Shown: positions 26,535 through 43,658 of the stretch, in pieces
Numbering within the stretch: position 1 is the first letter of the stretch
Layout: each line of letters starts with the position of its first letter
Origin: Candidatus Daviesbacteria bacterium
GTDB lineage: Bacteria > Patescibacteriota > Microgenomatia > Daviesbacterales > UBA10151
Direction of reading: 5' to 3'
DNA: 64,000 nt
Assembly (NCBI GenBank): GCA_030699125.1
Contig: JAUYKM010000012.1
Coordinates: 11,159-75,158 of the forward strand
Made by a program: the position numbers and the translations under genes
Notes under the pieces: generated by a model
Database searches by the model: none
The model's input: only the letters and a program-made list of their open reading frames with translations
Told to the model about the DNA's origin: nothing

Positions 26535-26987
26535 TTGTGTATGAGGTTGATAAACTTCTTAATTAAACTTTTTCCTACTAAACCAATTTATGCTCATTGT
26601 GATATTCCTTGCGGGATTTATGATCCACACACAGCTCAGCTTGCTGCTAAAACTGTTTTAACCATGGTTCAAAAGTTAAAAGATATTAAAGCTGAACCAG
26701 GATCACCAGAGGAACTGCAAGCAAGAAATAACTTTGTCAGGATGGTGAAAGTGAAAGAAGAACATGCGGAAATTTGTAAAAGAGAAGTTTTAATTCTTTG
26801 GACAGATTATTTTAAGAGCGAGCATCTGGAAAAATTTCCTGATCTTCATGATCTGATTTGGAAGGCAGCCAAATTATGTTCTGAGAACAAAAGGGCAGTA
26901 GATGAGGTAAAAGCACAGGAACTAGTAGCAGCAGTTGATAAGATTGCGGAGATATTTACTCAGACAAAAGTAACAAGTAACAAGTAA
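26535..26987 (+). CDS. sodN: Nickel superoxide dismutase precursor (SodN).
   Basis: Leader followed by the Ni-hook AHCDIPCGIYDP. Alignable to Streptomyces NiSOD over the whole length. Confidence 0.85.
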   Translation: MCMRLINFLIKLFPTKPIYAHCDIPCGIYDPHTAQLAAKTVLTMVQKLKDIKAEPGSPEELQARNNFVRMVKVKEEHAEICKREVLILWTDYFKSEHLEKFPDLHDLIWKAAKLCSENKRAVDEVKAQELVAAVDKIAEIFTQTKVTSNK

Positions 26988-27032
26988 CAAGTTATATTTC
27001 TTGTGCCTTGTTATCTTTACTGTACTTGTTAC
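26961..27032. repeat. GTAACAAGT x3 direct-repeat array plus a conserved 33-nt leader CTTGTGCCTTGTTATCTTTACTGTACTTGTTAC, immediately 5' of the sodX ATG.
   Basis: An almost identical element lies at 40567-40641. The leader contains ACTTGTTAC, the reverse complement of the repeat unit. Confidence 0.5.
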
Positions 27033-27033
27033 T

Positions 27034-27333
27034 ATGAAGATCTTTCCATTTTCCAGATTTACAGTGTATGGGAATTCCATGCTGCCTACTCTAAAAGAAG
27101 GCCAGGATGTTTTAGTTTGGTGTTGGTTTTATACTCCAAGAGTGGGGGATATTGTAATAGTGCAAAGTGCAAAGGGAAAAGTGCAAAGGGAAATAATAAA
27201 AAGAATTGTAAAAATAGATAGACAAAGATTTTACATAGAAGGGGATAACAAAGATGAGAGTACTGATTCCAGAGAATTTGGTCCAATTAAAAAAGAGCAA
27301 ATAATAGGAAAAGTAATTTATATAGTGAGGTAA
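27034..27333 (+). CDS. sodX: S26/signal-peptidase-like NiSOD maturation protease (SodX).
   Basis: GNSMLPTL (Ser nucleophile) and KRIV (Lys). The track starts it at 27001; the ATG at 27034 follows the conserved leader. Confidence 0.7.
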   Translation: MKIFPFSRFTVYGNSMLPTLKEGQDVLVWCWFYTPRVGDIVIVQSAKGKVQREIIKRIVKIDRQRFYIEGDNKDESTDSREFGPIKKEQIIGKVIYIVR

Positions 27334-27355
27334 GATGTGAGATAATATAGCAGTT

Positions 27356-27667
27356 ATGGACGATACTGCCCAGGATAAAATAATCCAATTTAGCGACCAG
27401 CATGATGCTGATCTTCACAAAAGGGTCCATCAAAATCTTCAGCAAGCTGGACATCCTGTTTCTAAGGCGGATATTAAGCCAGATGAGCATTCTGCCTTAG
27501 AAAATCTTAGAGAAGGCTTGGAAGATCAGGCAGATGTAGTGGGAGCAGCAGTAGAGGAAGTAGGAGACAAACTGGGTGGAGAAAATGTCACCTATATTGA
27601 ACAAAGGCCGTCCAAAGATTGGAAAACACGTTTAAAGGAGAGAATAAAAGGAAAGAAGGCAGCATAA
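27356..27667 (+). CDS. Hypothetical protein, 103 aa.
   Basis: ORF only. Confidence 0.45.
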   Translation: MDDTAQDKIIQFSDQHDADLHKRVHQNLQQAGHPVSKADIKPDEHSALENLREGLEDQADVVGAAVEEVGDKLGGENVTYIEQRPSKDWKTRLKERIKGKKAA

Positions 27668-27670
27668 GAG

Positions 27671-30016
27671 ATGGAAGTTACTCAAACACAAACTGGATTG
27701 GATTTTGTTTCGCTACTGATGATAATGGTGGCAGCCACAGCCTTAATTCTTCTCTCTATTGGCTTAATACTTTTTTTCCGTAAATTCTTAATAGGTTTTT
27801 TCAAATACAGACAAAGAGAAAAATCTTCTTTGCAGTTTGTACTGTTACAAATTAAAGTCCCCAGAGGCAATGAAATCAAAATTGATGCGGCAGAGCAGCT
27901 TTTTGCCACCTTTGCTTCTCTTAGAAAATCCGGCGGCATGCTCTCGTTTTTGGAGCCTCAACCTCATCTATCTTTTGAAATTGTAGCTGTTCATGAATCC
28001 ATCAGATTTTTTGTTTCCTGTCACATAAGCCATCAGGATCTTTTGGAAAAGCAGATTAACGGAGCCTATCCTGATGCGGAGGTCAAAGAGGTGCCGGAAT
28101 ATAATATTTTTTCGGAAACAGGTGAGACTGCCTATGCGCTTTTAAAACTTAAAAACGCAGATTATTTTCCCATAAAAACTTTCCGGGATCTGCCAACAGA
28201 TCCTTTATCTGCCATTACCTCAGCTTTGGCCAAGATGCAGCCGGGTGAGGGAGCGGCAGTGCAGCTGATGATCTCTCCCTCCGATGATAAGTGGAGAGAT
28301 CTGGGAAAGAAATGGTTAAAAAATGAAAAAGATCCTGGTAAGAGCGATAACCCTAAGCCTCCGCCTGATGCCAAACAACTGGAGGCAGTGGAGGGGAAAA
28401 CTTCCCGCGCTGGATTTAATGCAGCTGTCAGAATTGTAGTTTCTTCCACCACATCTTTGAGTGCCAAAGCTCACCTAACCAACATCAAAGCTACTTTTGA
28501 GCAATTTTCTGGGCCATACAATGGATTTTCCGGTGCCAAGATTTATTCTGAGAAAGGCTTTATGACTGATTTTATCTACCGTTATATGCCCAAATTTAGC
28601 AAGCCTGCGGTCTTAACTGCTGATGAGCTTTCTTCTATTTTTCATTTTCCCAACAAATCAGTGGAAACTCCATACGTGGACTGGCTCTCTTCCAAAAGAG
28701 CCCCGGCTCCGGAAAAAATCCCCACTTCAGGACTTTACCTGGGTAAATCTGTTTTTCGAGGAGTAGAAAGGCCGGTCTATCTTTCCGAAGATGACAGAAG
28801 AAGACATATGTATGTGATTGGCAGAACCGGCACCGGCAAAACCGAGTTTTTAAAAACCTTAATGCTGCAGGATATTTTGGCTGGCAAAGGCTTATGTTTT
28901 ATTGATCCGCACGGAGATGCAGCAGAGGAGATCCTGCAGCTGATTCCCCCTGAAAGAGCAGAAGATGTGATCTATTTTGATCCTTCGGATACTGCCCGCC
29001 CTTTTGGTTTAAACATGCTGGAAGCCTATACTGAAGAGCAGAAACACTTTGTGGTCTCATCCATCATTGGGCTGATGTATAAGCTGTTTGATCCCAACAA
29101 AACCGGTATTATCGGTCCCAGATTTGAACACGGGGTGAGAAATGCCATGCTCACTGCTATGTCCGCTGAGGGTGCTACTTTTGTGGAAGTAATGCGTATT
29201 ATGACTGATGCTGCTTTTGTGCAGGAGCTGTTGCCTAAAGTCAGCGATCCGGTGGTTCGCCGCTACTGGACAGACCAGATTGCCCAAACTACTGACTTTC
29301 ACAAATCCGAGGTGCTGGATTACACTGTCTCCAAATTCGGCAGATTTGTGACCAATAGAATGATGAGAAATATTATTGGTCAGTCAAAGTCAGCTTTTGA
29401 TTTAAGGAAAGTAATGGATGAAGGGAAAATCCTGATTATGAATTTGTCCAAAGGTAGATTGGGCGAGGAAAACTCCAACTTTTTAGGCTTAATTCTGGTT
29501 CCTAAAATTCTGGCAGCTGCCATGAGCCGTTCCAACGTGCCGGAGGCCCAAAGAAAAGATTTTTATCTCTACGTTGATGAGTTTCAAAATTTTGCCACTG
29601 ATACTTTTGCCGATATTTTATCTGAGGCTCGTAAATATAGACTTAATTTAATTGTGGCCAATCAGTTTATTGGCCAGATTGGCGAGGATTTAAAAAATGC
29701 GGTATTTGGCAATGTGGGTACTTTGGTAGCATTCAGGGTAGGGGTGACAGATGCCAATTACCTGCAACATGAGTTTTCTCCGGTATTCTCAGAGGCGGAT
29801 CTGGTCAATGTGGAATCACCCCATGCCTACATTAAGACCATAGTTAAAGGAGAACCGGTGGTGCCGTTTTCTTTAGATACTACCAAGGATATGAATAAGT
29901 GGAGAGCTTTGCTTAAGCCTCAGGTAGGTCAAGCTATTAAAGAATTATCCAGATTAAAATATGGTAAGGATGCTCAGGTAGTGGAAGCAGATATTGTCCA
30001 GAGAGCAAGATTGTAG
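27671..30016 (+). CDS. TraD/TrwB/VirD4-like P-loop ATPase (T4SS coupling-protein-like) with an N-terminal TM segment and a ~350-aa unknown N-domain.
   Basis: Walker A IGRTGTGKTEF. Walker B LYVDEFQNFAT. C-terminal TraG-D_C-like ILSEARKYRLNLIVANQFIGQI. Confidence 0.65.
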   Translation: MEVTQTQTGLDFVSLLMIMVAATALILLSIGLILFFRKFLIGFFKYRQREKSSLQFVLLQIKVPRGNEIKIDAAEQLFATFASLRKSGGMLSFLEPQPHLSFEIVAVHESIRFFVSCHISHQDLLEKQINGAYPDAEVKEVPEYNIFSETGETAYALLKLKNADYFPIKTFRDLPTDPLSAITSALAKMQPGEGAAVQLMISPSDDKWRDLGKKWLKNEKDPGKSDNPKPPPDAKQLEAVEGKTSRAGFNAAVRIVVSSTTSLSAKAHLTNIKATFEQFSGPYNGFSGAKIYSEKGFMTDFIYRYMPKFSKPAVLTADELSSIFHFPNKSVETPYVDWLSSKRAPAPEKIPTSGLYLGKSVFRGVERPVYLSEDDRRRHMYVIGRTGTGKTEFLKTLMLQDILAGKGLCFIDPHGDAAEEILQLIPPERAEDVIYFDPSDTARPFGLNMLEAYTEEQKHFVVSSIIGLMYKLFDPNKTGIIGPRFEHGVRNAMLTAMSAEGATFVEVMRIMTDAAFVQELLPKVSDPVVRRYWTDQIAQTTDFHKSEVLDYTVSKFGRFVTNRMMRNIIGQSKSAFDLRKVMDEGKILIMNLSKGRLGEENSNFLGLILVPKILAAAMSRSNVPEAQRKDFYLYVDEFQNFATDTFADILSEARKYRLNLIVANQFIGQIGEDLKNAVFGNVGTLVAFRVGVTDANYLQHEFSPVFSEADLVNVESPHAYIKTIVKGEPVVPFSLDTTKDMNKWRALLKPQVGQAIKELSRLKYGKDAQVVEADIVQRARL

Positions 30017-30021
30017 AGAGT

Positions 30022-30091
30022 AGGCCCGGAAGGAATCGAACCCTCGTAAAGTGTGTATAAGACACTCGCTCTACCATTGAGCTACGGGCCT
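30022..30091 (-). tRNA. tRNA with anticodon UAU (Ile, AUA-decoding).
   Basis: Reverse complement folds as AGGCCCG-TA-GCTC-AATGGTA-GAGC-G-AGTGT-CTTATAC-ACACT-TTAC-GAGGG-TTCGATT-CCTTC-CGGGCCT-A. The 7-bp acceptor stem and 5-bp anticodon stem are all Watson-Crick; the 5-bp T-stem has one G-U. Confidence 0.75.
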
Positions 30092-30132
30092 GTAGGTGGA
30101 ATTATACCAAAACTTGACCCGCGGTTCTTCCT

Positions 30133-30996
30133 TTAAAGCTCTTCCAGCTTTACCTTAGATTCTCCGTTTTGGTTTTGGACAAATTGGAGGTAGCGTTCAG
30201 TGGTGGATAGTCTTTTGTGCCCGGCCAGCTTGGACACCATGGTTAAGGGAACTCCTGCTTGCAGCTGGTGAGCCACCCAGGTGTGTCTTAAATCATTAAC
30301 TTTAGCTTCCTTGATGCCGGCAATTCTAAAATATCTATCAATTGCTGTCCTGATATTTCTGATCAGTAGGGGTCTGCCGGTTTTGGTGATAAAAAGAGCA
30401 TGTGAGGGGGTTTTGGGACGCACTTCCAGATATTTAGTTATGGCATCAGCTGCAGCTCTATTTAAAGGAATAGTTCTTTCATTTGAGCCTTCAAATTTAG
30501 GCACAGATAAGTTGCCACCATCCAAATTGATGTCTTCAACTCGCAGTTGGGCTAGTTCCCCAATCCTAATGCCGCTTTGCAGTAAAAGCTCAATTACAGC
30601 CAGCATTCTGGTATCAGATCTGGCAGCATCTCTTAAAGCTCTATATTCGAGCTTGGTGAGAATCCTGGGGGGTTTGTTTTCAAATTTCGGATGCTCCAAA
30701 GAATTGGCCGGATCCTCTGTTATATAGCCTTGAGCTTTTAAGAACTTGAAAAAAGTTTTAGTGGAATTGGTTTTTCGAGAGATAGATTTGGCAGTATAGG
30801 TCTCTTTGGATAGTTTTTCCATAAAGGATTGGAGATCTTCCAGACTGACTTGAGCCACATCATTTTTACCGGCAGCTTTGAGATACTCATTCAGTTGCTC
30901 AATATCCTTGCCATAAGCTAAGATAGTAGCTGAGGATCTTGATTTTTCCTTAAGATGGGCAAGAAATTGTTTATGGGCATCCTCTAAATTAGCCAT
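30133..30996 (-). CDS. Tyrosine recombinase (XerC/XerD-like integrase).
   Basis: C-terminal RHTWVAHQL...LAGHKRLSTTERYLQ (R..H..Y catalytic pattern). N-terminal core-binding domain. Confidence 0.85.
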   Translation of the reverse strand: MANLEDAHKQFLAHLKEKSRSSATILAYGKDIEQLNEYLKAAGKNDVAQVSLEDLQSFMEKLSKETYTAKSISRKTNSTKTFFKFLKAQGYITEDPANSLEHPKFENKPPRILTKLEYRALRDAARSDTRMLAVIELLLQSGIRIGELAQLRVEDINLDGGNLSVPKFEGSNERTIPLNRAAADAITKYLEVRPKTPSHALFITKTGRPLLIRNIRTAIDRYFRIAGIKEAKVNDLRHTWVAHQLQAGVPLTMVSKLAGHKRLSTTERYLQFVQNQNGESKVKLEEL

Positions 30997-31044
30997 ATGG
31001 CTGATATTTTAAGTTTATAGGATAGAATTGTCAAGAGTTAAGTT

Positions 31045-31398
31045 ATGAGAAGAAAAACTGTTATTGTATTAATAATTATAATTCTAAGCGCAATTTTCTA
31101 TTATTTGATCAGTCAGATTGTAGGCGCTTTAAAATCTTCAGATAGATTGAGCCAGGCAGCAGATCAAGTTTATCAGCTGGAGGCAAAAAACAGACAATTG
31201 AAAGAGGAGTTAAAAAAGATTCAATCTCCTGAATATATTGAAGAACAGTTAAGAGATAAACTGGGGCTATCCAAAAAAGGCGAGACAGTGGTGGTTATTC
31301 CGGAGAAAAAAATCAAAGAGGTTTTGGGGGCCTCAGAATCCTCTCAAGAAGTCAGATTACCCAATTGGTTGGGGTGGCTGAGAGTATTCTTTAGATAA
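31045..31398 (+). CDS. FtsB/DivIC-like septum formation initiator.
   Basis: TM segment, coiled-coil and LGLSKKGE motif. Confidence 0.55.
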   Translation: MRRKTVIVLIIIILSAIFYYLISQIVGALKSSDRLSQAADQVYQLEAKNRQLKEELKKIQSPEYIEEQLRDKLGLSKKGETVVVIPEKKIKEVLGASESSQEVRLPNWLGWLRVFFR

Positions 31399-31467
31399 TT
31401 TGTGTCTGCACTGAGCGAGTCCCGATTTATCGGGACGAGTCGAAGTGTTACGGGAAACTGTTAGAAA

Positions 31468-31743
31468 CTATTTCTTTCTATAGACCTCATCATGGGTACC
31501 TATTTTGAAGAAATAGATAGTCTCATTTTCTTTATATAACATTCGATAGCTCTTATCAATAGAAATACTCCATATGCTTAAGTTATCACGTCTTTTGATT
31601 TTATGAAGACGGAGTGATTTACTGCGGGAATTGTTTATGAATAAATATAATTGTTTCTGAATTCTGTTGTATAAACTCACATTCTGACGTTGAATTTCCT
31701 TTAGTTTTTTATCTACATCAGGACTAAATTTAAGAGGTTTCAC
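31468..31743 (-). CDS. RelE/ParE-family toxin.
   Basis: ...LHKIKRRDNLSIWSISIDKSYRMLY...IYFFKIGTHDEVY pattern. ATGA overlap with the upstream antitoxin. Confidence 0.65.
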   Translation of the reverse strand: MKPLKFSPDVDKKLKEIQRQNVSLYNRIQKQLYLFINNSRSKSLRLHKIKRRDNLSIWSISIDKSYRMLYKENETIYFFKIGTHDEVYRKK

Positions 31744-32003
31744 AGATTCTTAAAGAATTTATCCAATTCTTCTTTACTAGTGATTGTGATAGCTTTATCT
31801 TTTTCCTTTAAGGCTTTTTTTAAGGCTCGTTCAGATTTATCAGAGAGCTCGAAAGTAGGGTAATCCATATCTTCTACGTCTTTTAACATTAGATGTTTAA
31901 TATAGCCTGCCAAAGGCATGCCGAATTTGTCGGCTTTGCTTTCCAGATAATCTTTGAGAGCTAGAGGTAAATTTAATTTAATTTGTGCCTGTTGAGTAAT
32001 CAT
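31740..32003 (-). CDS. Cognate antitoxin (family uncertain).
   Basis: 87 aa. 4-nt overlap with the toxin gene. Confidence 0.5.
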   Translation of the reverse strand: MITQQAQIKLNLPLALKDYLESKADKFGMPLAGYIKHLMLKDVEDMDYPTFELSDKSERALKKALKEKDKAITITSKEELDKFFKNL

Positions 32004-32080
32004 AAAGCTAGTATATCACCAATTTCAGGACTTTTCAAGGACTAAAATATAATGTTGCGGGGATGGAATGATGTTAGAAT

Positions 32081-32458
32081 TTATTTTGCTTCTTCCCGTG
32101 CATAAATTACATCTGTCTGCGGAACAATGTGTGAAAGCTCAACTCCTTCTTGAAGTTCTTGTATGTTTATTAATCTAAAATCAAAATCCACATCCGCTGA
32201 TGTTTCTATACTTTGCAACACTTCCATCTCGGCTTGGTACACAGGATTCCTGTACATCATATCAAACGGTGGTGCGGATATAACAGTTAACAGACGGCGA
32301 CCTTCGCCTTCAAGAGATTTAGTATCGTAGACTGCCTGAACTTGTGGTAAATCTTTAACACGACTTATAAATGCACTTCTAACAGCTTCTGGAATTTGTG
32401 GATTTGGAAATTCAACCATAGACAGCAAGATTGTAGTTTCTTGTACGCTATATGTCAA
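32081..32458 (-). CDS. Hypothetical protein, 125 aa.
   Basis: ORF. Flanked on both sides by a ~33-nt repeat. Confidence 0.45.
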   Translation of the reverse strand: MTYSVQETTILLSMVEFPNPQIPEAVRSAFISRVKDLPQVQAVYDTKSLEGEGRRLLTVISAPPFDMMYRNPVYQAEMEVLQSIETSADVDFDFRLINIQELQEGVELSHIVPQTDVIYAREEAK

Positions 32459-32582
32459 TTAGCTTGTCCTAACAATCTAAACTACCACTGTGTCCCATAC
32501 CATACGGTATAGGACCATGAACTGTATGGTTCGTGGTTGCGGAGTGGGATGATGTTAGAAACTATTATTTTAACCGTTAACC

Positions 32583-33428
32583 TTATTGGTGGATTATCGT
32601 ACCGCCATTAAAGATTTGAATATCATCTAGTGAGACTACTATAGATCGCCACCCTGTTCCTGGATCATTAATAAAGTAAGTACCAGGTTTTACTCTAAAA
32701 TTATATGCTCCAGCTAAATCGGTTTTCGTAGTTTGAACAATAGTTTTTTTATCCTCCGAATACAAAGTTACAGGAAAATTAGTCAGCGTACCTGAATTAG
32801 AAAAAGTATTATTTTTCTCTACTTGAGAAAACATTTGACCAGTGATATCGCCAGTTGTAATAGGAGAGTTGGTAATAGAAGAGGCAATAAGTTGAAAGTT
32901 TGGATCATCCTCTGTCGTAGCTTGGGAAGCGTAGATTATGTAAGCAGCTTTCTCTGAATCCTCAAGATATAATATTTGAGTAGGTGATCCAGCACCGCCT
33001 CCACGAGATTTCACAAGAATTGCGTGTGTATTAATAATTTTAAACTCTGGTTGATCGTTAGCTGTTTGGTTTAATCGTTTTACATAGTTAGAAAATGATT
33101 CCTCCCGCTGCCTTTCAAAAGGATTTTGATCAAGCCAGTATTTAGCAAGGGTCACTGTATATCCAGTTCCTGCAGGACGACAATCATCCTTGAGACATTC
33201 TACATTGATAAATCCGTTACGATCATCATCGATATACCAACCCTCAGGAAGATTAAGGATAAAACCTAATGTTGTATTTATGTGTTGATTTTTCGGCTGG
33301 GATGGAGAAGTTGTAGAAGGGACTGTTTGGGATTCATTTAAATTAATTTTCCCAGAATAGACTAAATATCCACCAATTGCTGCAGCTACTAGCAGAACTA
33401 TTAAAAATGCATGTCCTTTTTGATTCAC
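32583..33428 (-). CDS. Hypothetical secreted/membrane-anchored protein with a C-terminal beta-sandwich-like region.
   Basis: N-terminal TM. Ser/Thr-rich stretches. Confidence 0.5.
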   Translation of the reverse strand: MNQKGHAFLIVLLVAAAIGGYLVYSGKINLNESQTVPSTTSPSQPKNQHINTTLGFILNLPEGWYIDDDRNGFINVECLKDDCRPAGTGYTVTLAKYWLDQNPFERQREESFSNYVKRLNQTANDQPEFKIINTHAILVKSRGGGAGSPTQILYLEDSEKAAYIIYASQATTEDDPNFQLIASSITNSPITTGDITGQMFSQVEKNNTFSNSGTLTNFPVTLYSEDKKTIVQTTKTDLAGAYNFRVKPGTYFINDPGTGWRSIVVSLDDIQIFNGGTIIHQ

Positions 33429-33513
33429 AAATTCAGTTTAACACTTTTGGATTAAAGGTTCTAACCATATCATCTAGTTGCTTAAATTTGAGGCTAGATG
33501 TATAATTTGCGGA

Positions 33514-36003: not shown

Positions 36004-36074
36004 GGCAGTGTAGCTTAACGGCAAAGCGGTGCCCTCATAAAGCACGGATAGAGGTCCGACTCCTCTCATTGCCA
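36004..36074 (+). tRNA. tRNA(CAU) (elongator Met or Ile2-type, G1-C72).
   Basis: GGCAGTG-TA-GCTT-AACGGCA-AAGC-G-GTGCC-CTCATAA-AGCAC-GGAT-AGAGG-TCCGACT-CCTCT-CATTGCC-A. One C31:A39 mismatch. -10 TACAAT at ~35989. Confidence 0.75.
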
Positions 36075-36114
36075 CAAAGTAAGTGAAAAGTGTAAAGTTA
36101 AAAGTGCAAAGTCT

Positions 36115-37422
36115 ATGAAAATAATTGTTTTAGCAGCTGGAGAAGGGAAAAGAATGTGGCCAATTACTATAGATAAGTGCCTGATTCCTTTTCTGGGAAA
36201 GTCACTGCTTTATCATAATCTCAAAAAAATTAAAGAAAATGTGGACCCCGATTTAATCGGGGTGGATGGGGAATTTGTGATTATTTCCACTCCACAAAGC
36301 AAGGATGAAGTGACTAAAATTGCCCAAGCTTTAAATCTTAAGTTCCAACTTGTTGTACAACAACAACCCAAAGGTATGGCAGATGCGCTACTTTCCGCCA
36401 AAGAATATTTAGAGGGTGAAGTTTTGGTAGTTAATGCAGAAGATATTTTAGATGGGGAAGTGTATGGAGAAGTGGCAAAAGGTGGGGCAGATGTAGTGGT
36501 GGCTGGTTTGAAAGTAGACAAGTACTTCCCGGGTGGTTACCTGAAAGTAGATGGTGACAAGGTGGTTGGAATAGTGGAGAAACCTGGAGAGGGGAATGAG
36601 CCATCAGGTATGGTTAAGTTAGTGGTGGATTATTTTAAAGACGGGAAAAAATTGGTTGAATATTTAGAAAAAGCATCAAGCGAGCAAGATGATGTTTATG
36701 AAAAAGCTCTTGATCAGATGATTACTGATGGGATGGAGGTAAAGTTTACAAAGTATGATGGAGTTTGGATTCCATTAAAATATCCATGGCAGATTTTAGA
36801 TATCCTGGAACACTTATTACAAGATATTGAACAACAAATTTCCCCGGGTGCGAATGTGTCTGAAAAGGCCACTATTACGGGAAAAGTGATCATTGAGGAA
36901 GGGGTAAGAGTATTCGAAGGAGCTGTTATTAAGGGGCCTTGTTACATTGGCAAAAATGTCATTGTGGGAAACAATACCATGATCAGAGAGTCTGATTTGG
37001 AAGAAGGTTGTGTGACCGGATTTTCATCAGATATCACCAGATCTTATATTGGAGCCAATTCCTGGTTTCATACTAATTATATTGGAGATTCAGTAATCGA
37101 GGGGGATTTTGGCATGGGTTCAGGGGCTGTTTTGGCTAATTTACGCTTAGATGATCATACAATTCGGGTGGGAGAAGAGGAAATAGACTCAGGGCGTCAT
37201 AAGTTGGGACTTATGGCTGGTAAAGGTTCAAGAATCGCAGTAAACGCCTCTGCTATGCCTGGAGCAAGAGTGGGATCTAATTCTTTAATAGGACCAGGAG
37301 TGGTTTTATATGGGGATGTAAAAGAAAATAAAAAAGTCTTGGTAAAACAGGAGCTTGAAATAACCGAACACACCCCAGCTTTAACCAGTTATGATCAGTT
37401 TAGGGAAAAATTAAAAAAATAA
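36115..37422 (+). CDS. Sugar-phosphate nucleotidyltransferase with a C-terminal left-handed beta-helix (GlmU-like architecture).
   Basis: LAAGEGKRMWP N-terminal motif. Hexapeptide repeats in the C-terminal half. Confidence 0.7.
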   Translation: MKIIVLAAGEGKRMWPITIDKCLIPFLGKSLLYHNLKKIKENVDPDLIGVDGEFVIISTPQSKDEVTKIAQALNLKFQLVVQQQPKGMADALLSAKEYLEGEVLVVNAEDILDGEVYGEVAKGGADVVVAGLKVDKYFPGGYLKVDGDKVVGIVEKPGEGNEPSGMVKLVVDYFKDGKKLVEYLEKASSEQDDVYEKALDQMITDGMEVKFTKYDGVWIPLKYPWQILDILEHLLQDIEQQISPGANVSEKATITGKVIIEEGVRVFEGAVIKGPCYIGKNVIVGNNTMIRESDLEEGCVTGFSSDITRSYIGANSWFHTNYIGDSVIEGDFGMGSGAVLANLRLDDHTIRVGEEEIDSGRHKLGLMAGKGSRIAVNASAMPGARVGSNSLIGPGVVLYGDVKENKKVLVKQELEITEHTPALTSYDQFREKLKK

Positions 37423-37429
37423 TAGATAT

Positions 37430-38578
37430 ATGCTTCTTTATGAATTTGAAGGGAAAGAACTTTTTAAAAAAAGTGGAATAAATATTCCAGAAAGTCAGTT
37501 AATTAGTGGATCAGGTAATCAGTTAATTAGTATTAAAGCACCATTAATATTAAAAGCTCAGGTTTTATCTGGGAAAAGAGCAGATAGTGGTGGAATAGTA
37601 AAAGTCACAGAGATTAAAGATTTAAGATTTAAGATTAAAGAATTATTTGAGAAAACAGTAAACGGTGAGAGGGTAGAGAAAATTCTTATAGAAGAGATGG
37701 TGGAGGTAGATAAGGAATATTATCTTTCCTTTTCTTATTCAACAGAAACCAGGGGACCTGTGATGACATTTGGTGAAGGGGGTACAGGGGCTGAGGGGAA
37801 AGGGGCTAAAACAATTTCAGTTGATCCAATAAAAGGTTTTAATGGGGAGGGTTTACCTTCTGAGTTAGTCGAAGAAGGCAAAAAGTTGTGGCAACTTTTT
37901 ATAAAATATGACTGTGAATTGGCAGAAATTAACCCATTAGTTATAGACAAAAACGGCAAAATTTGGGCTTTGGATAGTAAAATAATTTTGGATGATGATG
38001 CAGATTTCAGAAGAGAAGAAAAGTTTCCGGAAAGAAATTTGTTTGGTAGAGCTTCGACTGAAAGGGAAATTGAGGCCAGAAAAATAGATGAAGGGGATCA
38101 CAAGGGTACAGCAGGTTCTGTTTATTGGGATCTTGGGGGAGATATAGCAGTAATTGCAGCAGGTGGGGGTGGTTCCATAGTCAATATGGATGCACTGATA
38201 GCTTATGGAGGTAAACCTGCCAATTATACAGAACATTCAGGAAATCCTCCTCGTGAGAAACTGAAAAAACTGACTAAGATTGTCCTCTCCAAACCTGGTT
38301 TAAAAGGATGCTGGTTTGTAGGGGGAACTGCCAATTTTACAGATATTTATGAAACCTTAATGGGATTTGTGGAAGGATTAAGGGAAATCAGCCCGAAACC
38401 TACATACCCAATTGTGATCAGGCGTGGGGGACCAAATGATAAAAAAGCTTTTGGAGAGCTAAAGGTAATTGGCAAAAAAGAAGGTTTTGATTTTCATATA
38501 TATGGCAGGGAAACACCTATGACCTCAACTGCAAAGATAATGGTTGATTTAGCCTATGGGAAACAATTGTCATCCTGA
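37430..38578 (+). CDS. Succinyl-CoA synthetase beta-subunit-like ATP-grasp protein (SucC or CcsA-like).
   Basis: 382 aa. ATP-grasp N-domain and CoA-ligase C-domain. Its stop codon lies inside a palindromic repeat element. Confidence 0.8.
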   Translation: MLLYEFEGKELFKKSGINIPESQLISGSGNQLISIKAPLILKAQVLSGKRADSGGIVKVTEIKDLRFKIKELFEKTVNGERVEKILIEEMVEVDKEYYLSFSYSTETRGPVMTFGEGGTGAEGKGAKTISVDPIKGFNGEGLPSELVEEGKKLWQLFIKYDCELAEINPLVIDKNGKIWALDSKIILDDDADFRREEKFPERNLFGRASTEREIEARKIDEGDHKGTAGSVYWDLGGDIAVIAAGGGGSIVNMDALIAYGGKPANYTEHSGNPPREKLKKLTKIVLSKPGLKGCWFVGGTANFTDIYETLMGFVEGLREISPKPTYPIVIRRGGPNDKKAFGELKVIGKKEGFDFHIYGRETPMTSTAKIMVDLAYGKQLSS

Positions 38579-38654
38579 GTGGAACGAAGGATCTCTAGAC
38601 TTGTTCTAGGTTCCTAGGATAAACCTAGAGATTCTTCACTACGTTCAGAATGAC
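38569..38654. repeat. Palindromic miniature element (termini GTCATCCTGA...TCAGAATGAC) with an internal 13-bp stem GAAGGATCTCTAG/CTAGAGATTCTTC.
   Basis: Variant of the GTCATyCC...GGrATGAC family seen 5 more times downstream. Supplies the last codons and the TGA stop of the sucC-like gene. Confidence 0.5.
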
Positions 38655-38668
38655 AGAAAAGAAAAAAA

Positions 38669-39559
38669 ATGGCTATTTTAGTAAACGAAAAAACTAAAGT
38701 TTTAATACAAGGAATTACTGGCAAAGAAGGCTCAAAAGTGGCTTTGCAGATGCAAAATTATCAAACCAAAGTTTTAGCAGGAGTTACACCCGGCAAAGGT
38801 GGGCAGGAAGTGCATGGCATTCCTATATATAATACTGTGTCTGAGGCGCTAGAAAATCATCCAGGGATTAATACCTCATTTGTAGCTGTGCCTAACTTTG
38901 CGGCATATGAGGCAATTAAAGAGGCTGTAGAGGTCCGAATTCCCCTGATTAATATCTTAACTGAACATATACCAATACAAGATAGCGCCAAAGCTATTAC
39001 CCTAGCCAGGGAGGCTGGAGTAAGGATTGTCGGCCCATCATCTATTGGGATTATTTCCCCGGGAATAGGAAAAGTAGGATCGATAGGTGGAGATGACCCA
39101 AGAGGAGTTTTTAGAAAAGGAAATGTGGGGGTAATTTCCAAATCTGGGGGAATGGCCTCAGAAGTGTCATGGATACTGACTAAGAATGGAATAGGGCAAT
39201 CAACTGTGGTGGGTATAGGAGGTGATGTGTTAGTAGGTAGTAGTTTTGCAGATTTAATGGAGGATTTTGAAAAAGATCCTCAAACTGAGGCTGTAGTATT
39301 GTTTGGAGAGATTGGGGGGACATATGAGGAAGAAGCTGCAGAGCTTATTAAATCTGGTGGTTTCACAAAGAAAGCGGTGGCATTTGTATCAGGTTTATTT
39401 GCAGAAACTTTGCCTTCTGGCACAAAGTTAGGTCATGCAGGAGCAATTGTTTATGGGGAAAAGGGAAGTTATAAATCAAAAGTAAATGCCCTGGAATCTG
39501 CCGGCATCAAAATTGCCAAAACCCCAGATGAAATTCCGGAGTTTTTAAAAAATACTTGA
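38669..39559 (+). CDS. Succinyl-CoA synthetase alpha-subunit-like (SucD or CcsB-like).
   Basis: 296 aa. CoA-binding Rossmann domain and phosphohistidine-loop region. Confidence 0.85.
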   Translation: MAILVNEKTKVLIQGITGKEGSKVALQMQNYQTKVLAGVTPGKGGQEVHGIPIYNTVSEALENHPGINTSFVAVPNFAAYEAIKEAVEVRIPLINILTEHIPIQDSAKAITLAREAGVRIVGPSSIGIISPGIGKVGSIGGDDPRGVFRKGNVGVISKSGGMASEVSWILTKNGIGQSTVVGIGGDVLVGSSFADLMEDFEKDPQTEAVVLFGEIGGTYEEEAAELIKSGGFTKKAVAFVSGLFAETLPSGTKLGHAGAIVYGEKGSYKSKVNALESAGIKIAKTPDEIPEFLKNT

Positions 39560-39563
39560 CTTT

Positions 39564-39585
39564 TGTAATACAAATGTAATACAAT
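39564..39585. promoter_or_regulatory. Paired TGTAATACA boxes (putative BrnTA operator/promoter) immediately 5' of the brnT ATG.
   Basis: ttttgtaatacaaatgtaatacaatATG. Related boxes precede the other two cassettes at 42096-42116 and 43663-43688. Confidence 0.4.
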
Positions 39586-39876
39586 ATGACTAGGATTAAG
39601 ATAAAGAAATTGGTCTGGGATGAGTGGAATATTGAGCATATAAAGAAGCACAATGTGATACAGAGTGAGGTTGAAGAAATATCTAAAAATATTATAATCC
39701 ATAAAAAGGTTAAATTAGGGAGATATTCAATATTTGGTAGAGTTAGTTCAAGAATTCTAACTGTAATTATTAATAGAAAAGCAAGCGGTATTTATTATCC
39801 GGTAACTGCAAGAGATGCAGCTAAAAAAGAAAGGAGAAAGCTATATGAAAAAGAAAAAAGGATTAAAATTTCCTAA
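39586..39876 (+). CDS. BrnT-family toxin (DUF497 ribonuclease toxin).
   Basis: LVWDEWNIEHIKKHNV...EEI pattern. Paralogue of the 42117 ORF. Confidence 0.7.
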   Translation: MTRIKIKKLVWDEWNIEHIKKHNVIQSEVEEISKNIIIHKKVKLGRYSIFGRVSSRILTVIINRKASGIYYPVTARDAAKKERRKLYEKEKRIKIS

Positions 39877-40126
39877 TTTTAATAAAATGACCTATGAAGA
39901 AGAAACAAATTGGTGGGATACCCATGATTTGGGAGATTATTGGGATGAGATGGAAGATGTGGAGATCATTTTTGATTTAGAAAAACTTAAGGAGGAAACA
40001 TTAATCTTGCGTCTTCAAAAAGAAACAAAAGAGGAACTTGAGAAAGAAGCCAGGAAAAAAGGAATAAATGTTTCCTCGCTGGCAAGACTCTGGCTTACCC
40101 AAAGGCTTCATACAGGAGTTAAATGA
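39845..40126 (+). CDS. BrnA-family antitoxin.
   Basis: YEEETNWWDTHDL...INVSSLARLWL. The track starts it at 39815. Overlaps brnT. Confidence 0.65.
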   Translation: MKKKKGLKFPNFNKMTYEEETNWWDTHDLGDYWDEMEDVEIIFDLEKLKEETLILRLQKETKEELEKEARKKGINVSSLARLWLTQRLHTGVK

Positions 40127-40181
40127 AAATTGCCAAAACCCCAGATGAGATTCCAGAATTACTTAGGTAACAAGTACAGAA

Positions 40182-40568
40182 GTGACGAGTAACAAGTTAG
40201 AAAACAATTCATTGTTTGGGTACAAAAAGCTAATAGCATGGCAAAAAGCGAATGAATTGGCACATAAAGTGTATGATTTAACACTGGCTTTTCCGAGAAG
40301 TGAATTATTTGGTATTACTTCTCAACTACAAAGAGCAGTTTTATCAGTTCCATTAAACATAGTGGAGGGGCATGCAAGAAACAACAAGAAAGAGTTCCAT
40401 AGATTTCTGGCTATTTCTTTAGGATCATTAGCTGAAACAGAATATTTATTGGAGTTTGCTTATGAGAGAAAATATATAAAAGAGGAGACATTTAAGGAAA
40501 TCTGCTTGCTAAGATCTGAAGTAGGACATATAATTTGGAGGTTATATATTTCGCAGAAAGGAGGGTAA
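40182..40568 (+). CDS. Four-helix-bundle protein (23S rRNA intervening-sequence protein family).
   Basis: LIAWQKANELAHKVYDLTLAFPRSELFGITSQLQRAVLSVPLNIVEG signature. GTG start. Flanked by GTAACAAGT repeats. Confidence 0.75.
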   Translation: MTSNKLENNSLFGYKKLIAWQKANELAHKVYDLTLAFPRSELFGITSQLQRAVLSVPLNIVEGHARNNKKEFHRFLAISLGSLAETEYLLEFAYERKYIKEETFKEICLLRSEVGHIIWRLYISQKGG

Positions 40569-40641
40569 CTAGTAACAAGTGACAACTAACAAGTTAAAAT
40601 ACAAATAGCTTGTGCCTTGTTACCGTTACTGTACTTGTTAC
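40567..40641. repeat. GTAAC(A/T)AGT repeat array plus the conserved 33-nt leader CTTGTGCCTTGTTACCGTTACTGTACTTGTTAC directly 5' of the 40647 ATG.
   Basis: Near-identical to 26961-27032. A further array lies at 40166-40200, upstream of the four-helix-bundle gene. Confidence 0.5.
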
Positions 40642-40646
40642 AAGTC

Positions 40647-41399
40647 ATGAATGATAAGAAATGGAAGACAAGTATTGCTGGGATAGTTGATGGAGAGGTT
40701 ATTATACATGGGTATAAAGTAACAGATTTAATAGATAAAGTTAATTTTACAGAAGCAATCTGGCTTGAACTTAAAGGGGAATTGCCAACAGAAAAAGAGC
40801 GAGCCATGCTGGATGCAATATTGATTTCCACAATTGACAATGGGTTAGGTCCTCCATCTATGACTAATGCCAGAAATAGCGCCTCAGCTGGTAATCCCAT
40901 GCAGGCAGCTGTAGCTGCAGGAATTTTAGGTGTGGGAGATTTTCATGGAGGAGCAATTGAGGGCTGTGCCAAGCTCTTACAGATGGGCTTAACAGCTGAC
41001 AAACTGGTGGAAAAAGTTATTTCCTCAGGAGACAGAATAGCCGGTTTTGGCCACAAAGTTTATGAAGTAGATCCCAGAGCAACTCAAATATTTGCCAAAA
41101 GTAGAGAATTAGGCTTTTTTGGTGAACACTGCAATCTGGCCACAGAGGTGGAAAGAGTTTTGGAAGAGAAAAAGGGTAAAAAGATCCCCATTAATGTGGA
41201 CGGAGCAATAGCAGCAGTAATATCTGATATGGGATTTGACTATCGTTTAGGTAAAGGTTTTTTTCTAATAGGTAGGGTAGTGGGTCTGGTGGCCCATATC
41301 TTTGAAGAAATGGTGCGCGAGAAGCCTTACAGAAGAATTTCCTCTGAAGAAATTGAATATGACGGTGAACCTGTCAGAAAACTTGACAAAGCTAAATAA
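40647..41399 (+). CDS. Short citrate-synthase-family protein (citryl-CoA lyase-like, ~250 aa).
   Basis: GFGHKVY...DPRA citrate-synthase catalytic motifs, but only C-terminal-domain length. The track starts it at 40617. Confidence 0.7.
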   Translation: MNDKKWKTSIAGIVDGEVIIHGYKVTDLIDKVNFTEAIWLELKGELPTEKERAMLDAILISTIDNGLGPPSMTNARNSASAGNPMQAAVAAGILGVGDFHGGAIEGCAKLLQMGLTADKLVEKVISSGDRIAGFGHKVYEVDPRATQIFAKSRELGFFGEHCNLATEVERVLEEKKGKKIPINVDGAIAAVISDMGFDYRLGKGFFLIGRVVGLVAHIFEEMVREKPYRRISSEEIEYDGEPVRKLDKAK

Positions 41400-41462
41400 C
41401 TTATAGTAAAATTTATATATTGACAAGCATTCTTACAATATGCTTACAATTGAAGTATCAAT

Positions 41463-41488
41463 ATCCCATTTGGGATTTTTGTTTTTTT
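41463..41488 (+). terminator. Rho-independent terminator (ATCCCA-TT-TGGGAT plus a T-run).
   Basis: Read directly downstream of the 40647 gene. Confidence 0.65.
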
Positions 41489-41552
41489 AAAAACATATGC
41501 AAAGCTTAAGATTTTTTAATTTTTGGAAAATGTACGCTCTCTATATTGGAGG

Positions 41553-41625
41553 GAGCGGCTCAGTGGGCTTAAGTCCCAAGGATAAGGACTAAAAGACCCC
41601 AGCCGCCCCGCAAAACGGGCGGTTT
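41553..41625 (+). ncRNA. Candidate cis-regulatory leader (riboswitch/attenuator-like): structured 5' region ending in a terminator hairpin abutting the SD.
   Basis: GGGAGCGGCU can pair with AGCCGCCCC as an antiterminator. This competes with the terminator CCGCCC-CGCAAAAC-GGGCGG-U6, followed by GGAGG-N7-ATG. Confidence 0.35.
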
Positions 41626-41640
41626 TTTAATGGAGGAAAT

Positions 41641-42015
41641 ATGGAAAGAGTAGAAAGAGAAAGAACTTTATCTCATAAAGAACATATTGTAGTGATAGAT
41701 AACGAGACAGACCAGACCATCTTGGCTAATGTTGAAGGTATTAAAGGACATATTCAAGAAGAGGAGTCGGGGGATATAGTCTTTGTGAAAAGTCTGGATG
41801 GTAGATCCTTTGAATTCAGTACTTTGATAAAACTCGGTCGCGGTAAGTTTACCAGTAGAGATAACAGGTATGTATTTTACAGAGCTTGTTTATTAGATCC
41901 AAAAGATCCGCAAGATCAGGAAATTATTTTAAGAGCTATAAAAACTTTCCCGCAATCCCTTAATGGTAATGGAAGCCATACCAATTCAGATCAGAATGGT
42001 CACCTTATGTCCTAG
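41641..42015 (+). CDS. Hypothetical protein, 124 aa.
   Basis: ORF with a strong SD GGAGG. Confidence 0.5.
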   Translation: MERVERERTLSHKEHIVVIDNETDQTILANVEGIKGHIQEEESGDIVFVKSLDGRSFEFSTLIKLGRGKFTSRDNRYVFYRACLLDPKDPQDQEIILRAIKTFPQSLNGNGSHTNSDQNGHLMS

Positions 42016-42116
42016 TCTAACCTCTTAATTCAAATTGTGGTATATTTTAACCATGCAAAAGAGAATTTTAACCGGGGATAGGCCAACTTGATTTTTGTAT
42101 AACAGTGTAATACAAT

Positions 42117-42401
42117 ATGACCAGAATAGTTGTTAAAGAATTGGTTTGGGATAAAGTAAATTTGGAGCATATTAAAAAACACAATGTTACAAAAGAAGAA
42201 GCTGAAGAGGCAAAAAACTTTATCTTGCATTGGAAGACTCATACAAAAAGATATCTGGTTGTCAGTAGGGTCGGTTCCAGATTAATATCGATGGTATTAA
42301 ATAGAAAAAGTACTGGAATATATTATTTAGTTACAGCTAGAGATAGCGGTAAAAATGAAAGAAGGAGGGTACATGATAAAGAAAAAAAGCAGAATTCCTA
42401 A
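42117..42401 (+). CDS. BrnT-family toxin (second copy).
   Basis: MTRIVVKELVWDKVNLEHIKKHNV is paralogous to the 39586 ORF. Confidence 0.7.
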   Translation: MTRIVVKELVWDKVNLEHIKKHNVTKEEAEEAKNFILHWKTHTKRYLVVSRVGSRLISMVLNRKSTGIYYLVTARDSGKNERRRVHDKEKKQNS

Positions 42402-42657
42402 ATTTAAGACTTACGAAGAAGAAGCCAACTTTTGGGATACGCATGAATTCACAGAATTTGAAGATGAGCTAGAGGATGTTGAGATAGTTTTTGAGTTGAA
42501 CAAACCCAGAGATGAAACTGTGGTTCTCCGAGTACAAAGAGAAATTAAGGAGCAACTGGATAAATTAGCCAGAAGCCGCGGCCTAAATTTATCTACTCTG
42601 GTGAGAATGTGGATGATGGAAAAGCTACAGGAAAATTTAAAGAGACCAAAATTATGA
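42373..42657 (+). CDS. BrnA-family antitoxin (second copy).
   Basis: YEEEANFWDTHEF...LNLSTLVRMWMM. Its stop TGA overlaps the trpS ATG (ATGA). Confidence 0.65.
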   Translation: MIKKKSRIPKFKTYEEEANFWDTHEFTEFEDELEDVEIVFELNKPRDETVVLRVQREIKEQLDKLARSRGLNLSTLVRMWMMEKLQENLKRPKL

Positions 42658-43658
42658 AACGAATTTTGACAGGAGATAGGCCGACGGGAAAGCTACATTT
42701 AGGGCACTATATAGGTAGCCTTCGCAACCGCGTGCGTTTGCAGGAGAAGTACGAGTGTTTTTTTATTATTGCTGATTTGCATACTTTAACTACCAAGCCT
42801 GAAAAAACAGCAGATCTTAAAGAAAATATTTACCAGATGGTGTTGGATTATTTATCAGTGGGAATTGATCCGCAAAAAGCCACTATTTATATTCAATCCC
42901 AAATTCCGGAAGTAGCAGAGTTGGCTATTATTTTTGGAAATCTGGTTTCCACTCCCAGACTAGAACGGGTACCAACTCTTAAAGATGTCATGAAAGATGC
43001 TCACATCACCATTCCTTCCTATGGATTACTAGGTTATCCTGTGCTTCAGGCTGCTGATATTTTGATGGTAAGAGCTAATTTGGTGCCTGTAGGGAAAGAT
43101 CAGGTATCCCATATTGAAGTAACCAGAGAAATCGCTAGGGATTTTAATAGATTATATGGTGAAAGATTACCTGTGCCAGAGGTTCTAGTGCCGCAAGATT
43201 TAGGTACTTTGCCCGGAACAGATGGATCAGGAAAGATGAGTAAGTCTGCTGGAAACGTTATTAACTTGACTGATTCCCCGGAGGAAGTGGAGAAAAAGGT
43301 GATGAGTATGTATACAGATCCTAATAGGATTCACGCAACAGATCCTGGAAAAGTAGAGGGGAATCCGGTTTTTATATATTTAAATGCTTTTTGTACAGAA
43401 GGTGACAAGGTACAAGTAACAAGTTATGAAAATCAATATAGACAGGGCCAAGTTGGTGATATTGAGGTAAAAAAGTTTCTGGCCAAAATACTCAATAATT
43501 TTTTAGATCCCATTAGAAAAAGAAGAGCTGAATTTGAAAAACAACCAGAATTAATAGAAAAAATCTTAAAAGAGGGAACTGAGAAAGCTAGAAAAGAAGC
43601 ACAAGAAACTTTAAAAGCAGTGAAAAAGGCAATGGAATTAGATTATTTTAGTGATTGA
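42654..43658 (+). CDS. trpS: Tryptophanyl-tRNA synthetase.
   Basis: HIGH-class motif TGDRPTGKLHLGHY and KMSKS (GKMSKSAGN). The track ORF begins at an upstream GTG at 42609; the ATG at 42654 is more likely. Confidence 0.9.
   Translation: MKRILTGDRPTGKLHLGHYIGSLRNRVRLQEKYECFFIIADLHTLTTKPEKTADLKENIYQMVLDYLSVGIDPQKATIYIQSQIPEVAELAIIFGNLVSTPRLERVPTLKDVMKDAHITIPSYGLLGYPVLQAADILMVRANLVPVGKDQVSHIEVTREIARDFNRLYGERLPVPEVLVPQDLGTLPGTDGSGKMSKSAGNVINLTDSPEEVEKKVMSMYTDPNRIHATDPGKVEGNPVFIYLNAFCTEGDKVQVTSYENQYRQGQVGDIEVKKFLAKILNNFLDPIRKRRAEFEKQPELIEKILKEGTEKARKEAQETLKAVKKAMELDYFSD

Follow-up and report, generated by a model that had tools for sequence, protein, structure and literature searches.

Hairpin-forming heptamer repeats at cistron junctions of Candidatus Daviesbacteria, with and without a PF05635 four-helix-bundle gene in the loop

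The window analysed here is a 64,000-nucleotide stretch of the genome of a Candidatus Daviesbacteria bacterium (assembly GCA_030699125.1, contig JAUYKM010000012.1, positions 11,159 to 75,158). It contains three tandem arrays of GTAACAA-type heptamers and two near-identical 33-nt sequences, which lie at the sodN/sodX junction and around a small PF05635 gene, encoding a four-helix-bundle protein, upstream of the lyase gene ccl. The arrays and 33-mers constitute the two arms of hairpin elements: a short, gene-less copy between sodN and sodX and a full-length copy in which the four-helix-bundle gene occupies the loop. We consider it probable, with moderate confidence, that these three arrays and two 33-mers belong to one hairpin-forming repeat family of Candidatus Daviesbacteria, the full-length form of which carries a PF05635 gene in its loop. 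The parts of the two copies, and a similar string in trpS, are as follows.

26968..26992, + strand: left arm of the short copy, which has no gene; formed by a perfect (GTAACAA)x3.6 array containing the last sodN codons (VTSNK) and the stop codon TAA (26985-26987)
26993..26999, + strand: loop of the short copy, A/T-rich, TATATTT (from sequence and fold)
27000..27032, + strand: right arm of the short copy, CTTGTGCCTTGTTATCTTTACTGTACTTGTTAC, ending 1 nt short of the sodX ATG at 27034
40166..40197, + strand: outer left arm L1 of the full-length copy, GGTAACAAGTACAGAAGTGACGAGTAACAAGT, a degenerate array that pairs with R across the gene
40182..40568, + strand: four-helix-bundle gene (PF05635/TIGR02436, 128 aa), in the loop of the L1-R stem
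40565..40594, + strand: inner left arm L2, GTAACTA GTAACAA GTGACAA CTAACAA GT, for which a local hairpin with R is possible
40595..40608, + strand: A/T-rich loop of the local L2-R hairpin, TAAAATACAAATAG (from sequence and fold)
40609..40641, + strand: right arm R of the full-length copy, CTTGTGCCTTGTTACCGTTACTGTACTTGTTAC, ending 5 nt short of the ccl ATG at 40647
43402..43424, + strand: array-like string in trpS (codons DKVQVTSY), outside the element; plain coding sequence, no insertion

The genes around these parts were assigned by Pfam.

26535-26987: Ni superoxide dismutase (sodN)
ATG at 27034: sodX, an S26/S24 peptidase
37430-38578 and 38669-39559: citryl-CoA synthetase-like subunits (ccsA and ccsB)
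39586-40126: BrnT/CopG toxin-antitoxin pair
40182-40568, start codon GTG: PF05635 four-helix-bundle protein
ATG at 40647: ccl, a lyase of the citrate-synthase fold

TrpS was also confirmed by Pfam. The four-helix-bundle protein matched PF05635 with an E value of 5.6e-35 and TIGR02436 with an E value of 1.3e-32, and its nearest solved structure is XCC0516 of Xanthomonas campestris. PF05635 is a family that is very abundant in bacteria of the Candidate Phyla Radiation (CPR), cyanobacteria and Bacteroidota. Proteins 100% identical to this protein and to SodN are encoded in a metagenome-assembled genome of Candidatus Daviesbacteria (CPR), and a Logan contig from SRR13727534 is identical to window positions 38626-43475.

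A preliminary description of this DNA had drawn attention to the arrays and to the 33-mer as a leader in front of two start codons; every string that it named is present, with slightly corrected coordinates. Tandem Repeats Finder detected period-7 arrays of 3.6 copies (100% match) at 26968-26992 and of 4.3 copies at 40565-40594. The two window sites of the 33-mer CTTGTGCCTTGTTAYCKTTACTGTACTTGTTAC (the 'leader', also given as CTTGTGCCTTGTTAYCNTTACTGTACTTGTTAC) are identical at 31 of 33 bases, and no match to it was expected by chance (100 shuffles). With up to one mismatch, GTAACAAGT occurs 24 times in the window, against an expectation of 12.6 ± 3.5, and all nine exact occurrences are inside the three array regions. 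The 64 kb hold two hairpins and three arrays of this element. The arrays also contain the ends of genes. The VTSNK C-terminus of SodN is array-encoded, as had been proposed, and the stop codon lies within the array as well; L1 contains both the GTG start of the four-helix-bundle gene (40182) and the stop codon (40168-40170) of a duplicated remnant of the ccsB 3' end, and L2 overlaps the stop codon of the four-helix-bundle gene (40566-40568) at its first unit.

Both junction hairpins that had been predicted from the sequence do fold, at -21.9 kcal/mol (z = -3.3) for sodN/sodX and -24.3 kcal/mol (z = -2.3) for L2-R/ccl, and so does every other copy of the element described below, with z-scores as low as -5.9. 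The best complement of the right arm R is the upstream array L1: positions 40167-40179 are complementary to 40629-40641 at 13/13 positions, followed by 8-9 bp more. The L1-R duplex was calculated at -37.7 kcal/mol, compared with -14.1 ± 3.7 for shuffled L1 and -26.8 for the local L2-R hairpin, and when 40155-40655 is folded at minimum free energy, the pairing of L1 with R encloses the entire gene. The stem of the full-length form (40166-40641) is imperfect and comprises roughly 22-30 bp, with the gene in its loop. In L007, one of the related loci used for comparison (L numbers), and in the L012 copy at an unrelated locus, the inner array is missing, so that R can pair only across the gene. In L004, GTAAC/GTTAC has been replaced by GTGAC/GTCAC, a change found on both arms.

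Rfam 15 at gathering thresholds returned only two tRNAs from the window; at E values up to 1 there was no match in 40100-40700 and one chance hit in 26900-27100, outside the element. As Rfam yielded no match to the element, a known RNA family was ruled out. An intrinsic terminator was also rejected: there is no U tract after either hairpin, and the only two terminator-like hits overlap neither of them but belong to the minus strand of the duplicated ccsB 3' ends. The stems are A/U-rich and run straight into an ATG, and are not G+C-rich as in a Rho-independent terminator.

We regard it as very unlikely that the elements are internal promoters, in which GTAACA would serve as the -35 element, the loop motif TATATT or TAAAAT as the -10 element and the right arm as the transcript leader. 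Suitably spaced pairs are present at both junctions (GTAACA-17-TATATT at 26970-26998 and GTAACA-17-TAAAAT at 40572-40600), but these matches are weak (9/12 positions) and no commoner than in shuffled sequence (1 versus 1.0 expected), the loop sequences are not conserved between copies, and a promoter would leave the inverted symmetry and the conservation of the right arm unexplained. The preliminary description had remarked that the leader followed no known promoter or ribosome-binding pattern. The promoter-like matches are no better than shuffled, and the missing ribosome-binding site is unremarkable here, since a Shine-Dalgarno motif is rare in the related loci (16 of 86 genes, 19%; many of the genes look leaderless) and its absence is normal for the lineage.

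The same succession of array, loop and 33-mer was found at three further junctions in other Daviesbacteria DNA, in keeping with the portable module that had been suggested: ylqC/trmD (L002), atpA/atpG (L003) and ccsA/ccsB (L005), all gene-less. The L002 copy (CAYNFQ010000007.1) runs from the end of a KH-domain gene through (GTAACAA)x6, GTTATATTC and the 33-mer to the trmD ATG. It was the one extra copy from a scan of one genome per species, and the atpA/atpG copy was the one extra copy from a scan of metagenomes; neither scan gave more because strict patterns were used in both. A covariance model (R1) built from seven copies scored those copies at 71-100 bits and revealed no further copies in 153 kb from several genomes. 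Because copies are present at ylqC/trmD, atpA/atpG and ccsA/ccsB, the 33-mer is not confined to two sites by one segmental duplication, a restriction that the preliminary description had allowed for. Chance resemblance or a single recent duplication within the genome is accordingly refuted. Its one attraction is that the 64-kb window holds only two full copies; no 33-mer is expected by chance, copies lie at three other junctions in other assemblies, and the flanking genes are unrelated. As to the assembly GCA_964396715.1, from which L002, L005 and L028 derive, it is titled 'uncultured Gammaproteobacteria', but its contigs are syntenic with Daviesbacteria and its proteins share 76-90% identity with the window proteins; the title appears to misplace the organism.

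Presence and absence of the element at orthologous junctions were then compared. At ccsA/ccsB, the two genes overlap without any insert in L004, a GTAACAA hairpin fills the junction in L005, and a different palindrome (38570-38665) fills it in the window. ATGG is repeated on both sides of the filled site; since ATGG also belongs to the ancestral overlap of the two genes, this repeat need not be a target-site duplication. At sodN/sodX, GTAACAA-type hairpins are present in the window, L015 and L016, with unit numbers that differ on both arms between L015 and L016, whereas L028 has an unrelated GTCATCC...GGAATGAC palindrome and L013 has A/T-rich TTTGAAA repeats, making three different fillers of one junction. 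An array-encoded tail is absent from 114 of 120 SodN homologues, most of which end in ...QTKK, and a VTSNK-type tail was found in only six; the homologues most similar to the window protein (77-84% identity) are among those without it. The variety of fillers at sodN/sodX and ccsA/ccsB suggests that cistron junctions of Daviesbacteria have been repeatedly colonised by hairpin elements, of which GTAACAA is one family.

Other palindromes and hairpins were encountered in the same DNA. The palindrome at ccsA/ccsB in the window (38570-38665) represents a second family, TGTCATCCTGAGTGGAACGAAGGATCTCTAG...CTAGAGATTCTTCACTACGTTCAGAATGACA, unrelated to the GTAACAA hairpin, and a palindrome related to it, GTCATCCCCGCGAATGCGGGGATCC...GGATTCCTGCCTACGCAGGAATGAC, fills sodN/sodX in another Daviesbacteria genome (L028, 3427-3505). 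A gene-less hairpin of yet another heptamer family, consisting of (TAGGGTA)n, a spacer of ~35 nt and (TACCCTA)n, lies between two co-oriented genes at L002 4670-4756, in the same Daviesbacteria assembly as the L002 copy.

The right arm was absent from 2.9 million viral contigs. (GTAACAA)3 gave 13 viral matches, all of them solo arrays with neither a right arm nor a four-helix-bundle gene nearby, and a phage origin was ruled out on these grounds. The viral loci concerned (L029-L041, IMG/VR) carry perfect (GTAACAA)3-9 arrays in contigs with G+C contents from 22% to 55%; two pairs of them are near-identical, and one array comes after a (CTATAAG)n array.

The string in trpS (43402-43424), which the preliminary description had listed with the arrays, is present and conserved in an orthologous trpS, but it is not a copy of the element, an inserted copy being ruled out by the alignment of TrpS proteins without insertion. 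The DNA for the surface loop concerned (DK[VL]Q[VT]T[SN]Y) has a period of 7, with different units at constant protein length: GTAACAA-like in the window and L005, and (CAAACTA)x4 in L004 (12608-12643).

The position of the copies relative to the neighbouring genes is constant. Three GTAACAA units place TAA in all three reading frames, as follows from their sequence; since the left arm thereby supplies a stop in every frame, the upstream gene ends within it, and this is the case in every copy. Likewise, the next ATG always lies 1-12 nt after the right arm. This geometry bears on the main alternative to a mobile or copied repeat, namely a cis-regulatory hairpin that the host has selected for translational coupling or mRNA stability, which we consider unlikely. 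For coupling, the hairpin would hide the downstream start until a ribosome ending in the left arm melted the stem and re-initiated; for stability, it would shield the upstream mRNA from 3' decay, the link with PF05635 being secondary. Both roles have been proposed for the short tandemly repeated repetitive (STRR) hairpins of hupS-hupL in cyanobacteria (PMC2670836), and the constant placement of stop and start, the strong constraint on the right arm and the rarity of Shine-Dalgarno motifs, which may make coupling necessary for internal cistrons, all agree with it. However, most orthologous junctions do without the element (the 114 of 120 SodN homologues without a tail, and the overlapping ccsA/ccsB of L004), and the same junctions hold unrelated palindromes in sister genomes, which suggests colonisation rather than a dedicated regulator. 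It would also remain unexplained why such arms accompany PF05635 genes across phyla. A related idea, that the hairpin brings a Shine-Dalgarno motif (AAAGGAGG) upstream of the left arm close to the ATG, was discarded: the motif is absent at sodN/sodX and at the ccl junction of L005, and 19% of the genes of the lineage use Shine-Dalgarno.

The four-helix-bundle gene is under strong purifying selection, with a ratio of nonsynonymous to synonymous substitution (dN/dS) of 0.04-0.07 at saturated dS. Between genomes, identity at the fourfold degenerate sites of ccl, ccsB and the four-helix-bundle gene is 33-55%, whereas 27-32 of the 33 positions (82-97%) agree in the non-coding right arm of the same genomes. 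This difference indicates that the right arm is constrained in sequence, homogenised, or spread between genomes. The two right arms of L005 are identical at 33/33 positions and share a lineage-specific variant, which fits copying within one genome.

The association of PF05635 genes with arrays extends beyond the window. For CPR genes, complementarity between the flanks was scored by local alignment of [start-70, start+45] with [stop-25, stop+100]; this score replaced RNAduplex on 115-125-nt flanks, which had failed to separate four-helix-bundle genes from controls. All ten scored CPR PF05635 genes gave values of 19-36, compared with 15.4 ± 2.5 for 1851 random controls (99th percentile 23, maximum 28), and an eleventh (L015:14180) has inverted arrays as well, as judged by eye and by a scan for periodic arrays. 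Six stem units were recognised among the CPR genes (GTAACAAG, CTAGCGGCTAG, TAGAAGGTAG, GAGTCTAG.., GGTATCAAAG and GGATATTAGGA); the stem sequence changes between gene lineages while complementarity is kept. L012:10001 and L008:10001, close homologues at unrelated loci, retain GTAACA-type arms, so that the arms move with the gene, and the proteins begin with residues translated from the array, as in MTSNKLEN and MVTSTGVTSNKL.

In plasmids of other phyla, tblastn gave 26 records, of which 14 were inspected. Heptamer arrays adjoin the gene in all 14, so that the flanking of the four-helix-bundle gene by arrays, first reported for the window, is true of every PF05635 gene examined. The arrays form inverted pairs in nine loci, such as GGGAGTA/TCCCTAC in Nostoc edaphicum, TAGGGTG/CACCCTA in Calothrix and GGTGACA/TGTCACC between cas6 and cas4 in Anabaena 90; one of the nine, in Azospirillum lipoferum, is a true 23S rRNA intervening sequence (IVS) with arms of 7-nt units. 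Short tandem arrays, usually of 7-nt units and usually inverted, are general beside PF05635 genes in this sample of 11 CPR and 14 plasmid genes. A further cas6/cas4 locus, on a plasmid of Pseudanabaena galeata (L021), has very long direct arrays around the four-helix-bundle gene, (CTAAAAG)x14 upstream and (CCAAAAG)x10 downstream, which are not inverted. Earlier reports place PF05635 genes in rRNA insertions of CPR bacteria (bioRxiv 10.1101/2024.02.27.582315) and at scattered positions in cas operons (PMC3936711).

These features invite comparison with several known systems, of which rRNA IVSs and the cyanobacterial STRR repeats stand nearest. In the 23S rRNA IVSs of Leptospira, Coxiella and Azospirillum, terminal inverted repeats pair into a long stem whose loop contains an S23p/PF05635 gene, as in the window element; the arms of the IVS in the Azospirillum lipoferum plasmid likewise consist of 7-nt units (AGAGGAC GGATGAC and their inverse), and gene-less versions exist of both the rRNA insertions and the window element. 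RNase III cuts within the inverted-repeat stem of IVSs of this gene family, the stem of Coxiella being 28 bp long (PMC4990558). Unlike an rRNA IVS, the window element is located between protein-coding cistrons and not in an rRNA helix (no rRNA turned up in the window), its left arm also provides the preceding gene with a 3' end and stop codon, and its processing by RNase III is presumed by analogy.

With the STRR sequences of heterocyst-forming cyanobacteria (CCCCAGT, TTGGTCA, CAACAGT), the element shares tandem 7-nt units, and it differs from them in its host, Candidatus Daviesbacteria, in its unit, GTAACAA, and in a right arm that is strongly conserved and not repetitive-looking. STRR1-3 are said to have been defined by Mazel et al. 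in 1990, and an STRR within a helix of RNase P RNA was reportedly described by Vioque in 1997. The cyanobacterial sequences can also form hairpins between genes of an operon, as between hupS and hupL (PMC2670836). The element of the window would work like an rRNA IVS and looks like an STRR hairpin but, being neither in rRNA nor in a cyanobacterium, is formally a member of neither class. The literature searched contained no report joining PF05635/S23p genes to STRR or heptamer arrays, and the physical link between the two that our sequence comparisons found was not met there.

Intergenic heptamer arrays of the units GGGAATC and GGGGAYT, dispersed in the genomes of Xanthomonas and Nostoc, were described by Rehm et al. 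in 2015, with about 70 convergent (inverted) array pairs per Xanthomonas genome that may form stem-loops (PMC4692102). They were read as G-quadruplex motifs and linked to no gene family (PMC4692102), in contrast to the window unit, which is A/T-rich and unable to form a quadruplex. Finally, the element resembles repetitive extragenic palindromic (REP) sequences and their bacterial interspersed mosaic elements, REP doublets forming hairpins (REPINs) and MITEs (miniature inverted-repeat transposable elements) in being short, palindromic, multi-copy, intergenic and polymorphic for presence at orthologous sites, and can likewise be viewed as a miniature derivative of a longer coding element. It is unlike REP sequences and MITEs in that no defined terminal inverted repeats or target-site duplication were found, in that its arms are tandem heptamers of varying unit number, and in that the protein which goes with it, a small four-helix bundle, is not known to catalyse any reaction. 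'REP-like' is nevertheless the nearest of the three options that the preliminary description had offered; a REP-associated tyrosine transposase (RAYT) or IS200/IS605-like transposase was not noticed in the gene tables of the loci, which were not searched for it specifically.

Another of those options was an attachment site, and the surroundings of L1 are of interest in this respect. On both sides of the BrnT/CopG-type pair (here taken as 39560-40123), at 39508-39550 and 40124-40166, ~40 nt from the 3' end of ccsB (KIAKTPDEIPE..) are directly repeated. The pair has its own promoter-like site, TTGACT-18-TACAAT, which ends 1 nt before the ATG and makes a leaderless mRNA probable. At this spot, L005 carries another two-gene cassette with a ccsB duplication of the same kind, and L004 has none; with cassettes that differ in this way among the window, L005 and L004, the ccsB end looks like an insertion hotspot. 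One could imagine the palindrome as a DNA recombination site of the integron attC or Xer type that captures small gene cassettes, among them the four-helix-bundle gene and the BrnT/BrnA toxin-antitoxin pair next to it, but to this we give very little credence. An imperfect palindrome could extrude as a hairpin, tyrosine-recombinase genes occur in the neighbourhood, and the different cassettes directly upstream of L1 in the window and L005 are each flanked by duplicated ccsB 3' end; this very duplicated sequence, not the arrays, bounds the cassettes, however. Furthermore, no integron-type integrase adjoins the element, an alignment of seven copies reveals no conserved GTTRRRY/RYYYAAC core pair, and gene-less copies sit in housekeeping operons without a cassette. 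Nothing points to site-specific recombination; the arrays are the element's own arms, which, as in L012 and L008, move with the gene.

Several other features of the window were recorded. A tRNA-Ile gene on the minus strand (30020-30091), with the anticodon UAU that is uncommon in bacteria, adjoins a tyrosine-recombinase gene (30133-30996); at the equivalent position, L005 and L015 also have a tRNA-like sequence, together with a four-helix-bundle gene that inverted arrays of its own accompany. Further heptamer arrays comprise an AAGTGAA-type array (AAGTGAAAAGTGTAAAGTTAAAAGTGCAAAGTC) at 36081-36112, between tRNA-Met (36004-36075) and an ATG at 36115; a period-7/14 array of AGTGCAA / AAAGTGCAAAGGGA x2 inside sodX (27159-27193); and AGATTTA x5 inside the ccsA-like gene (37609-37643), the last two each having one stop-free frame. 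The region 37430-41399, syntenic in L004, L005 and L007, encodes a two-subunit citryl-CoA synthetase and a citryl-CoA lyase-like protein that are conserved in Daviesbacteria; this gene set represents the two-step route of citrate cleavage in the reverse tricarboxylic acid cycle and is unexpected in a CPR organism with reduced metabolism.

To return to the repeat family that we favour, its elements consist of tandem heptamers of the GTAACAA type as the left arm, either a short loop rich in A/T or a PF05635 gene, and a conserved right arm that is a degenerate inverted copy of the array, all placed at junctions between cistrons inside operons. The sodN/sodX copy (26968-27032) would then be a gene-less miniature of the full-length form (40166-40641). 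In the polycistronic transcript, the arms would pair and RNase III would probably cut the duplex, as in rRNA IVSs; cleavage would free the four-helix-bundle mRNA and make the insertion tolerable to the host operon. Copies would have spread or been exchanged at the DNA level. As each four-helix-bundle lineage has its own repeat unit, the protein probably recognises its own arms.

A number of observations weigh against this interpretation. RNase III cleavage, or indeed any RNA-level role, is something that we purely infer, by analogy with the IVSs; sense and antisense strands fold about equally well, so that the element may instead act as a DNA hairpin, and covariation within the family is weak, with double changes in 2 of 24 consensus pairs. 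No rnc gene was found in ~190 kb of Daviesbacteria DNA, which is uninformative about RNase III. We identified neither a transposase nor a target-site duplication, nor any other machinery for mobility. The gene order ccsB, four-helix-bundle gene, ccl is syntenic in L004, L005 and L007 as in the window, and synteny in four genomes indicates vertical inheritance of an old copy at the ccl locus, not recent mobility. Among the 14 plasmid loci, direct arrays flank the gene on either side in two, and three carry arrays on a single side. Solo (GTAACAA)n in unrelated phage contigs demonstrates that the array alone is not diagnostic, and the sample of about 150 kb of Daviesbacteria DNA limits any statement on copies per genome.

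On a wider scale, the 23S and 16S IVSs, the cyanobacterial STRR, the convergent GGGAATC arrays of Xanthomonas and the GTAACAA hairpins of Daviesbacteria might belong to one multi-phylum class of selfish hairpin elements, with PF05635 genes and heptamers as its two halves and each protein lineage recognising and helping to maintain or spread its own unit. A 7-nt unit with a stop triplet may be favoured because three copies end translation in every frame, and an element could then sit harmlessly at any cistron junction. We put this forward tentatively, as a possibility that is more doubtful than not. STRR-type heptamers, described in 1990, and the PF05635 family are two old puzzles that may share one answer, and the window displays both halves cleanly in one genome: a gene-in-loop element and a gene-less miniature with a near-identical right arm. 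If the link between gene and arrays holds, the four-helix-bundle protein would have a testable role in binding or processing its own repeat arms, and the presence of small genes in cas, ATP-synthase and metabolic operons without disruption would be explained. It would also flag a source of annotation artefacts, among them VTSNK tails and MTSNK starts that arrays encode, and would locate likely RNA-processing sites in the operons of unculturable organisms.

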